Positions 25,093 through 26,133 of a DNA stretch of 28,704 bases are shown here, piece by piece. Below the pieces are notes generated by a model that saw nothing but the letters and a program-made list of their open reading frames with translations, was not told the origin of the DNA and did not search any database. The position numbers were made by a program, and so were the translations under genes. The DNA is from an uncultured Candidatus Saccharibacteria bacterium (GTDB lineage Bacteria > Patescibacteriota > WWE3 > 9FT-COMBO-53-11), in assembly GCA_964592215.1 (NCBI GenBank), contig CAZQCZ010000002.1, positions 1 through 28,704 of the forward strand, written 5' to 3'. Positions within the stretch are counted from its first letter, which is position 1, and every line of letters starts with the position of its first letter.

Positions 25093-25824
25093 TCACTTAT
25101 TCTTCTGTGATTTGGCAATCTTTCTTAGCAGCAAGTCTAAATTCCCGTTCATTATGTCTTCAATTTTGCCTACTGAAACCCCGTAACGATGGTCTGTAAT
25201 TCTATCTTGGGGGAAGTTAAAGGTACGTATCTTTTCTACCCTTTCGGCGGTGCCGATCTGCTCGCGACGCAACTCGTCAACGCGGGATTTCCGCTGCCGC
25301 TGCATCATCTGAAAGAGTTTTGATCGGAGAACGGCGAGGGCCCTTTCTCTGTTCTGAAATTGGGAACGCTCGTCCTGACAGCTGACGATAGTGCCAGTGG
25401 GAAGGTGCGTGACGCGCACAGCCGTTGCCACTTTTTGGACATTTTGTCCCCCGTGGCCTGACGCATGGAAAGCTTCTACCCTCAAATCGTTAGGATTTAT
25501 CTCAACCGACGTTGGCGGAACCTCCGGCAGGACGGCGACGGTGGCGGTTGAGGTGTGGATTCTCCCACCCTTTTCGGTTTTGGGTACTCTTTGTACCCGA
25601 TGAACGCCAGATTCGTGCCTAAGCAGGTCGGGGGCATCTTCACCGGCGATCTCCGCCGTTACCGATTTTATATTTCCGACCCCTCCCTCATGTCGGCTAT
25701 ATTCGCGGACTTTCCAACCGCGGCTTTCGGCGAAGCGCCGGTACATCCGGTAGAGATCGGCGGCGAAAAGCCCCGCTTCGTCGCCGCCAGCTCCGGCACG
25801 AATTTCTAGGATAACGGATCCCAT
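25093..25824 (-). CDS. prfA: Peptide chain release factor 1 lacking N-terminal domain 1 (243 aa)
   Basis: [35 protein letters not shown] (PxT, RF1-specific), GGQ, CQDERSQ and [14 protein letters not shown]. Confidence 0.93.
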
Positions 25825-26133
25825 TTAGCCTTGCTCCAACAGCGCTTTAAGAGTTCTCGGGCGTGTTTCTCTTTCTTTTTCTTTGAGCATCTTTGCTTCC
25901 TCTTTTTGGCGCTTTTCCTCTAATCGCGCTTTGGCCCATTTTCGCTTCCTATTGAACTTGTCAATCTGTCCTTTGGTGTCGATGAGCCTTTCCTCGCCCG
26001 TATATACAGGGTGGCATTTGTAGCAAACTTCGACTCGCAACTCGGGTTTAGTTGAGCCGGTAGCGAAGGTATTCCCGCAGGCGCAGGTTGCCCTTGCGTT
26101 TGCGTAGTATTTGGGGTGGATGTCTTTCTTCAT
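25825..26133 (-). CDS. rpmE: 50S ribosomal protein L31 (Zn type) with a charged C-terminal extension
   Basis: [23 protein letters not shown] and DTKGQIDKF, followed by a ~35-aa K/E/R-rich tail. AAAGGA SD. Confidence 0.95.

Follow-up and report, generated by a model that had tools for sequence, protein, structure and literature searches.

A release factor 1 lacking domain 1 in an rpmE-prfA operon of a Patescibacteria bacterium, and a candidate UAG gate before prfA in sister families

To our knowledge, domain 1 occurs in essentially all bacterial RF1 and RF2 proteins described so far. The structures of canonical RF1 (PrfA; TIGR00019/NF001859) that serve as references are 1RQ0 for Thermotoga maritima, 4V63 and 9MTR for the Thermus thermophilus factor on the 70S ribosome, and 2B3T and 5J30 for Escherichia coli. 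UAG is read by RF1 only, and the gene of the companion factor RF2, prfB, is the textbook case of an autoregulatory frameshift. As summarized in PMC1586002, which cites Mora et al. 2003, RF1 and RF2 of E. coli from which domain 1 was deleted in the laboratory retain codon-specific peptide release, domain 1 being dispensable for this activity in vitro, and the truncated RF1 works in vivo. A natural paralogue, PrfH (RFH), likewise has a codon-recognition domain and the GGQ motif and no domain 1. The +1 frameshift of prfB and the autoregulation of plant eRF1 by readthrough and NMD (PMC5397192) follow one logic: a stop read only by the factor lies in the path of the ribosomes making that factor. 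Our literature search found no report of RF1 autoregulation and none of an RF1 without domain 1 in CPR.

The DNA analysed here (the window) is a stretch of 28,704 nucleotides from a Patescibacteria (CPR) bacterium. The feature under study is a two-gene rpmE-prfA operon on its minus strand (Table 1), a gene order common in the phylum also for canonical RF1. The source genome is a metagenome-assembled genome (MAG) of 604 kb in 70 contigs, 88.6% complete. The original prediction, made from the letters of the window, had the rpmE TAA directly touching the prfA ATG in the same frame; we saw this contact as claimed, with a 0-nt spacer. The length of 346 aa given there for a hypothetical product of readthrough at the TAA also agreed with the arithmetic of the open reading frames, both genes being in one frame. 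A simple promoter/terminator scan around the two genes revealed no promoter-like site and no minus-strand terminator-like site.

Table 1. Features of the rpmE-prfA locus (positions in the window)
Feature	Position	Strand	Description
rpmE	26133..25825, including TAA	-	bL31, 102 aa, zinc-ribbon type (C17, C19, C37, C40)
Basis of the rpmE assignment			PF01197, E=2.5e-28, 98.5 bits, residues 1-63; NF000612, 94.4 bits, above cut-off
rpmE stop TAA	25827-25825	-	
prfA	25824..25093	-	RF1 without domain 1, 243 aa, domains 2-4 only
prfA start ATG	25824-25822	-	
prfA stop TGA	25095-25093	-	
Stop-start junction TAA-ATG	25822..25827	-	spacer 0 nt, both genes in the same frame
bL31 C-terminal tail	25828..25944	-	residues 64-102; Lys/Glu/Arg-rich, predicted helical
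Tail motif P-R-T-L-K-A-L-L	25837..25860	-	class consensus P-K/R-S/T-L-K-E/D-M/L-L
GGAG	25834..25837	-	possible Shine-Dalgarno sequence of prfA (function inferred), inside the last rpmE codons, 9 nt before ATG
PKT	25576..25584	-	RF1-type PxT 'tripeptide anticodon', residues 81-83
GGQ	25444..25452	-	catalytic motif within GGQNVQK, residues 125-127

The short RF1 covers only the rear half of the PCRF model (PF03462, E=8.2e-41; model positions 101-194 of 194), together with the RF-1 domain (PF00472, E=2.5e-37). Its match to NF001859 (E=1.9e-106) runs over model positions 105-343 of 347 and leaves positions 1-104 unmatched. Since only the rear part of the family models is matched, the N-terminal helical domain 1 of canonical RF1, about 105 model positions, is absent, and an earlier prfA start is impossible because the reading frame is bounded by an upstream TAA. 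The protein stays under the NCBIfam equivalog cut-offs (356.1 versus 400 for NF001859, 351.2 versus 423.25 for TIGR00019), a shortfall (356 versus 400 bits) that comes from the missing third of the RF1 model; the same 356 bits compare with 236 bits to the RF2 models. When 68 RF1s of the class are aligned, P81, T83, G125, G126 and Q127 stand in invariant columns, as do all decoding and catalytic residues of the window protein. Identity is 65-73% within its own family and 47-49% to canonical RF1, which has the same domains 2-4, PxT, GGQ and fold. The AF2 model of the short RF1 (pLDDT 93) superimposes on ribosome-bound RF1 of T. thermophilus and E. coli with a TM score of 0.95 and an rmsd of 1.4 A (Foldseek), and the closest solved sequence is that of T. 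maritima RF1. Domain coverage, motif columns and fold thus bore out the claim that this prfA has lost domain 1 and kept PxT and GGQ. The sequence GGQNVQK, by contrast, which had been called unusual, is not: it recurs in RF2 of the same genome and the class consensus is GGQNVNK, so it is a trait of the lineage and not a peculiarity of the gene. The residue following GGQ, usually His, is Asn throughout the class.

In its truncation point the protein agrees with the domain 1 deletions engineered in the two E. coli factors (Mora et al. 2003, cited in PMC1586002). Here, however, an ancient truncation of natural origin has become fixed in a clade, whose cells never possessed an RF3 to lose contact with. 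The resemblance to PrfH is one of architecture: the window protein scores 83.7 bits to TIGR03072 (cut-off 166.65) versus 356 bits to RF1, and it is the RF1 orthologue, with a PxT motif, the only RF1 of its genome, and adjoining rpmE. Unlike ArfB/ICT1, rescue factors in which a GGQ domain with a basic C-terminal tail stands by itself, it has a codon-recognition domain, and it reaches 38.5 bits with NF006718, whose cut-off is 100. Judged by its sequence the short RF1 is a known factor in a naturally occurring variant form, and it could serve as a ready-made minimal RF1 for biochemical and structural work.

RF1 and RF2 are each encoded once in the source genome; the RF2 is full-length and unshifted, carries SPF and GGQNVQK, and retains domain 1. 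A second full-length prfA, the presence of which would have weighed against the original prediction, was looked for in this 88.6% complete genome and none was found. There was no separate gene for domain 1 either: the sole extra PCRF match (E=0.024), considered as a free domain 1, was rejected, being the coiled coil of seryl-tRNA synthetase. The prediction had also remarked that prmC is missing and had left the presence of prfC, prmC and prfB to be checked. No PrmC above cut-off was found in the source genome (88.6% complete) or in nine family relatives, and RF3 was absent from every one of the 134 class genomes, whether or not their RF1 has domain 1. Thus the window's genome, differing in this from the canonical setting of RF1, yielded neither RF3 nor PrmC, and RF2 was present at full length. 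Ribosomal protein uL11 is present, and none of the 35 tRNAs of the source genome is a suppressor. As TAG closes about one third of the long ORFs in the source genome, RF1 is needed. One further, odd protein of the genome with a GGQ motif (HSKGGQKQQ), Arg/Glu-rich and 251 aa long (genome G000, contig C27, locus L003:1363-2118, minus strand), has a weak match to the RF-1 domain (E=0.0034, residues 140-206) and may be a divergent ArfB/ICT1-like peptidyl-tRNA hydrolase.

The comparison covered 134 species genomes of the class, 125 of which allowed the rpmE-prfA junction to be read, and 60 other genomes. RF1 proteins with 0-26 residues before the ILEIRAG block occur in families f1, f4, f5, f6, f7, f9, f10, f13, f15 and f16, f1 being the family of the window; in the other families of the class 62-88 residues precede this block, much as in T. 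maritima RF1. When a tree is built from the RF1 core, 21 short RF1s from nine families fall on one side of a branch (SH-aLRT 86), and the short RF1 of f7 is placed apart from them. One or two ancient losses of domain 1 explain this pattern, as far as sequences tell, and the short RF1 of the window would have been inherited from an ancestor common to at least nine families. In a 150-genome sample of the phylum RF1 is mostly full length, with short forms recurring in other families, closed genomes of f20 among them. Closed single-contig genomes that have this architecture outside the family of the window are G135, G163 and G189.

PrmC was detected in f2, f3, f7, f12, f15, f17 and f18, in none of nine genomes of f1 and in one of 86 of f14. 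It thus occurs in the short-RF1 families f7 and f15, yet is missing from most genomes with a long RF1. Since RF3 is absent even where RF1 keeps domain 1, and since RF2 keeps its domain 1, the loss of RF3 can at most have been permissive; and as the presence of PrmC does not follow RF1 length, its loss is unrelated to that of domain 1. We therefore rejected loss of RF3 (absent from 134/134 genomes) or of PrmC as the cause of the domain 1 loss. The proposal of a minimal, RF3-independent termination system stands in so far as domain 1 is truly gone and neither RF3 nor PrmC was found; the causal tie to RF3 is reduced to a permissive one, and that to PrmC falls away. A whole clade has dispensed with domain 1 in RF1 alone, RF2 of the same cells keeping it, and nature thereby offers a test of the role of domain 1 where RF3 is missing.

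We then compared the junctions. In family f1 the spacing between rpmE and prfA is -1, 0, 9, 9, 30, 30, 38 or 200 nt and the rpmE stop is TAA or TAG; the TAA junctions are in frame in three cases and out of frame in two. The exact arrangement of the window is therefore not conserved, and the frame conservation looked for across relatives did not materialize within the family. In the short-RF1 clade as a whole the rpmE stops are TAA in 11, TAG in 4 and TGA in 4 cases, and the junctions are of the type typical of translational coupling: TAATG, ATGA, or spacers of 0-13 nt. With such junctions in the clade, and with the TAA, the zero spacer and the GGAG in the window, we read the window junction as stop-start coupling. 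Ribosomes ending bL31 at the UAA, with the help of RF1 or RF2, would restart at the abutting AUG, possibly aided by the GGAG in the final rpmE codons, and the shared frame would be merely the case of a 0-nt spacer. Because its TAA is also read by RF2, the window junction cannot sense RF1 specifically.

A different picture emerged in the sister families with a longer RF1 (f14, f3 and f11), where a pair was counted as adjacent if the spacer did not exceed 150 nt. In 64 of the 72 adjacent rpmE-prfA pairs rpmE ends with TAG. The background is much lower: TAG closes 16 of 141 (11%) neighbouring long ORFs, five of about 100 prfA genes, and 10 of 31 rpmE genes that are not adjacent to prfA. The signal extends beyond the stop. 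After the 64 TAG codons position +4 is A in 54 cases and position +5 is T in 57, versus about 35% expected, and the third base is free, so that the next codon is ATT, ATC, ATA or ATG in 50 of 64. In highly expressed bacterial genes UAA followed by U is favoured, and UAG is leakier than UAA (PMC5289835); the UAG signal of rpmE thus runs against the usual trend.

The frame beyond the TAG is also kept. All 28 TAG junctions with a spacer of at most 24 nt are in frame with prfA, and counted by genus, with spacers up to 45 nt, the frame is shared in all 24 genera; among TAA junctions four share it and four do not. The short spacers, with lengths of 0 to 78 nt, show no alignable sequence from one genus to another and contain compensating indels, and the long spacers of close relatives differ by 1-nt indels. 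In junctions with a spacer of 40-150 nt, the rpmE frame runs on without a stop until it is no more than 25 nt from the prfA ATG in 29 of 34 cases, versus 12 and 13 of 34 for the other two frames and 12.2 for shuffled spacers; weighting by genus gives 13.8 of 16 for the rpmE frame versus 7.4 and 8.1 for the others. In most of these long spacers the second stop is one that RF2 recognizes, TAA or TGA, and at some junctions it overlaps the prfA start (ATGA). Forty further families of the phylum that have a full-length RF1 and this gene order served as a control: rpmE ends with TAG in 9 of 26 junctions and the frame is shared in 9 of 26, which equals chance. Spacers of these control families often carry hairpin and T-run motifs resembling terminators. 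All junction counts come from related genomes, and shared ancestry is corrected only in part, by the genus tallies.

Two genera have long spacers with features of their own. In the genus of G030, G126 and G128 (loci L218, L188 and L180) a 35-codon open frame follows the rpmE TAG; its length is conserved, its sequence is not, and it closes with TAATAA, which leaves 13 nt to the prfA ATG and is soon followed by an AGGTGA-like Shine-Dalgarno sequence. In the genus of G087, G096 and G091 (loci L138, L150 and L171) the long spacers share a TTTCCG...TTAGTTATATAAT block that resembles an extended -10 promoter, hence prfA may also have its own promoter there.

The pattern in the sister families suggests a UAG-gated feedback on RF1, by readthrough or by coupling. 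Its simplest reading, which we infer from stop, frame and context statistics, is that ribosomes pass the UAG in the rpmE frame, with an effect on prfA. In most adjacent pairs of these families rpmE ends with an RF1-only stop in a conserved UAG-A-U context, past which the rpmE frame lies open either straight into prfA or to a second stop beside the prfA AUG. Ribosomes that passed the UAG could reach prfA by one of two routes, continuing in frame to make a bL31-RF1 fusion, or terminating at the second stop (mostly UAA or UGA) next to the prfA AUG and restarting there. As ribosomes passing the UAG would reach prfA, RF1 synthesis would rise when RF1 is scarce, a negative feedback like that of prfB.

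The logic would be that of prfB and eRF1, with differences. The putative recoding would take place at a sensor stop that ends the upstream gene rpmE instead of an internal codon, and the frame would be kept, by readthrough or relay, and not shifted. The RF2 genes of the class are contiguous. The window itself carries TAA, so that the RF1-only sensor stop is seen in the relatives (64/72) and not there; the path past the stop, considered at the level of sequence only, is in frame with 0 nt in the window, in frame in 28/28 short and open in 29/34 long spacers of the relatives. The window junction is, on these comparisons, most likely plain stop-start coupling and a degenerate descendant of a UAG gate. 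The idea of coupling or readthrough feedback in the original prediction therefore survives in part: tight coupling is what the junction looks like and the relatives show a strong, stop-dependent signal, but the TAA of the window is not specific for RF1.

Taken as a whole, the explanation that we favour, and hold to be probable, is that the short RF1 is a release factor naturally reduced to the minimum of domains 2-4, whose activity is suggested by its conserved residues and predicted fold, that it is encoded in a coupled operon, and that the window junction descends from the UAG gate of the sister families. The narrower proposal, that the rpmE UAG acts as an RF1-sensing gate in the class and in some allied families and that the TAA-ATG of the window is such a gate in decay, we advance tentatively, with somewhat less than even confidence. 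If true, the UAG gate would give RF1, for the first time, a counterpart of the prfB frameshift, and the arrangement rpmE-UAG-AU-(open frame)-prfA offers a concrete, testable candidate for RF1 autoregulation.

The conserved A-U after the UAG could equally be part of a restart codon (AUN) or a leaky context, and the former possibility leads to another functional reading. Ribosomes would terminate at the UAG and restart at the adjacent AUN codon, giving a coupling relay with neither readthrough nor feedback, the spacer being translated as a leader or as an N-terminal extension of RF1. The identity of the codon after TAG (ATT/ATC/ATA/ATG in 50/64, third base free) fits this relay, as AUN codons pair with the initiator tRNA at positions 1-2, and so does the lack of an obvious Shine-Dalgarno sequence in the short spacers. 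The efficient start codons ATG, GTG and TTG are, however, not favoured at this place, where ATG appears only as the prfA start itself, and the relay leaves unexplained why the RF1-specific TAG stands in place of the otherwise dominant TAA. We consider such a relay unlikely.

It is less probable still, in our judgement, that the TAG and the common frame are functionless baggage, inherited by ancestry with few indels in short spacers, and that the window is an ordinary compact operon. Most cases do come from one large family (f14), and the counts are not fully independent. But TAG differs from TAA by a single transition and TAA makes up 77% of stops in these genomes, yet TAG persists only before prfA; although the spacers differ in length (0 to 78 nt) and their sequences do not align across genera, the short ones are all multiples of three; lineages that have switched to TAA drift out of frame, as in the sister pairs G011/G022 and G107/G057; and the control families elsewhere in the phylum, which share the gene order, do not depart from chance. 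Given these controls, pure inheritance of the sister-family pattern appears unlikely, and UAG-gated feedback remains the reading that we prefer for these families.

The bL31 encoded upstream is longer than the typical protein of 66-75 residues. It shares with bL31 type A the N-terminal 63 residues and the four cysteines, which are invariant among 46 relatives. As the Pfam L31 match comprises residues 1-63, residues 64-102 form a tail, and the charged tail that had been predicted is indeed present, with 39 residues beyond the Pfam match. Such tailed bL31 proteins, 97-120 aa in total, occur across the class, including genomes in which rpmE is unlinked from prfA. In the alignment of 46 bL31 proteins L95 is conserved to at least 90% and the tail ends with the consensus PxSLKEML, absent from type A bL31 like the rest of this charged helical extension. 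The motif looks like a short binding motif. The same motif, in its P-K/R-S/T-L-K-E/D-M/L-L form, is also present in other Patescibacteria families (f45, f78, f86 and f92). The long, motif-bearing tail is a further unexplained feature of the ribosomes of these ultra-small bacteria.

The tail is central to a stronger claim, that the TAA of the window is usefully read through to give a 346-aa bL31-RF1 fusion, tethered to the ribosome or with the tail in place of domain 1. Besides the common frame and the absence of a spacer, this idea could draw on the relatives G002 and G004, which have TAG followed by an open in-frame spacer of 30 nt, and on the Pfam and TIGR RF1 alignments, which extend through the stop into the bL31 tail, PCRF gaining about 10 bits. 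With an HMM of 66 canonical RF1s, however, real tails gained no more than shuffled tails (mean z -0.1), so the tail shows no descent from domain 1; we rejected it as either a remnant of that domain or a replacement for it, the extension being compositional. Of the stops UAA leaks least, and both release factors read it (PMC5289835), and the TAA junctions of f1 vary in spacing and frame (three in, two out). We also found no suppressor tRNA and, among the bL31-bearing proteins of 190-605 aa in a collection of 5.8 billion proteins, no bL31-RF1 fusion. Complex prediction for bL31 and the short RF1 gave a score of 0.00, which, run without controls, speaks neither for nor against binding and so lends the fusion no support. 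The AF2 model of a relative's read-through product has an L31 core, a tail helix and a two-helix RF1 domain 1, with pLDDT below 60 at the junction, and it offers no evidence for docking of the tail on RF1. Useful readthrough in the window is thus very improbable, and the suggested tethered or fused release factor, in the absence of any fusion protein in that collection, found no backing. Stop-start coupling is the reading that we retain for the window.

Gene decay, or an artefact of assembly or gene calling, with UAG termination handled otherwise, is a barely credible explanation of the short RF1: its scores under the equivalog cut-offs and the origin of the sequence from an incomplete, 70-contig MAG (88.6%) would allow it, but the same architecture is found in at least 21 species, including the closed genomes G135, G163 and G189, its functional residues are all invariant, its AF2 model is confident and RF1-like, and TAG is a frequent stop in the source genome.

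Nine genomes of the class (G007, G009, G025, G043, G045, G049, G075, G106 and G115) had no match at RF1 level and only RF2-like scores, G009 with a prfA fragment on a second contig; assembly gaps or real loss of RF1 could account for them. At locus L213 of G129 the RF1 frame begins two residues after the conserved block, 200 nt from a bL31 gene encoding 151 aa. The other members of this genus have a long RF1, and the L213 protein may reflect a frameshift or a decaying N-terminus.
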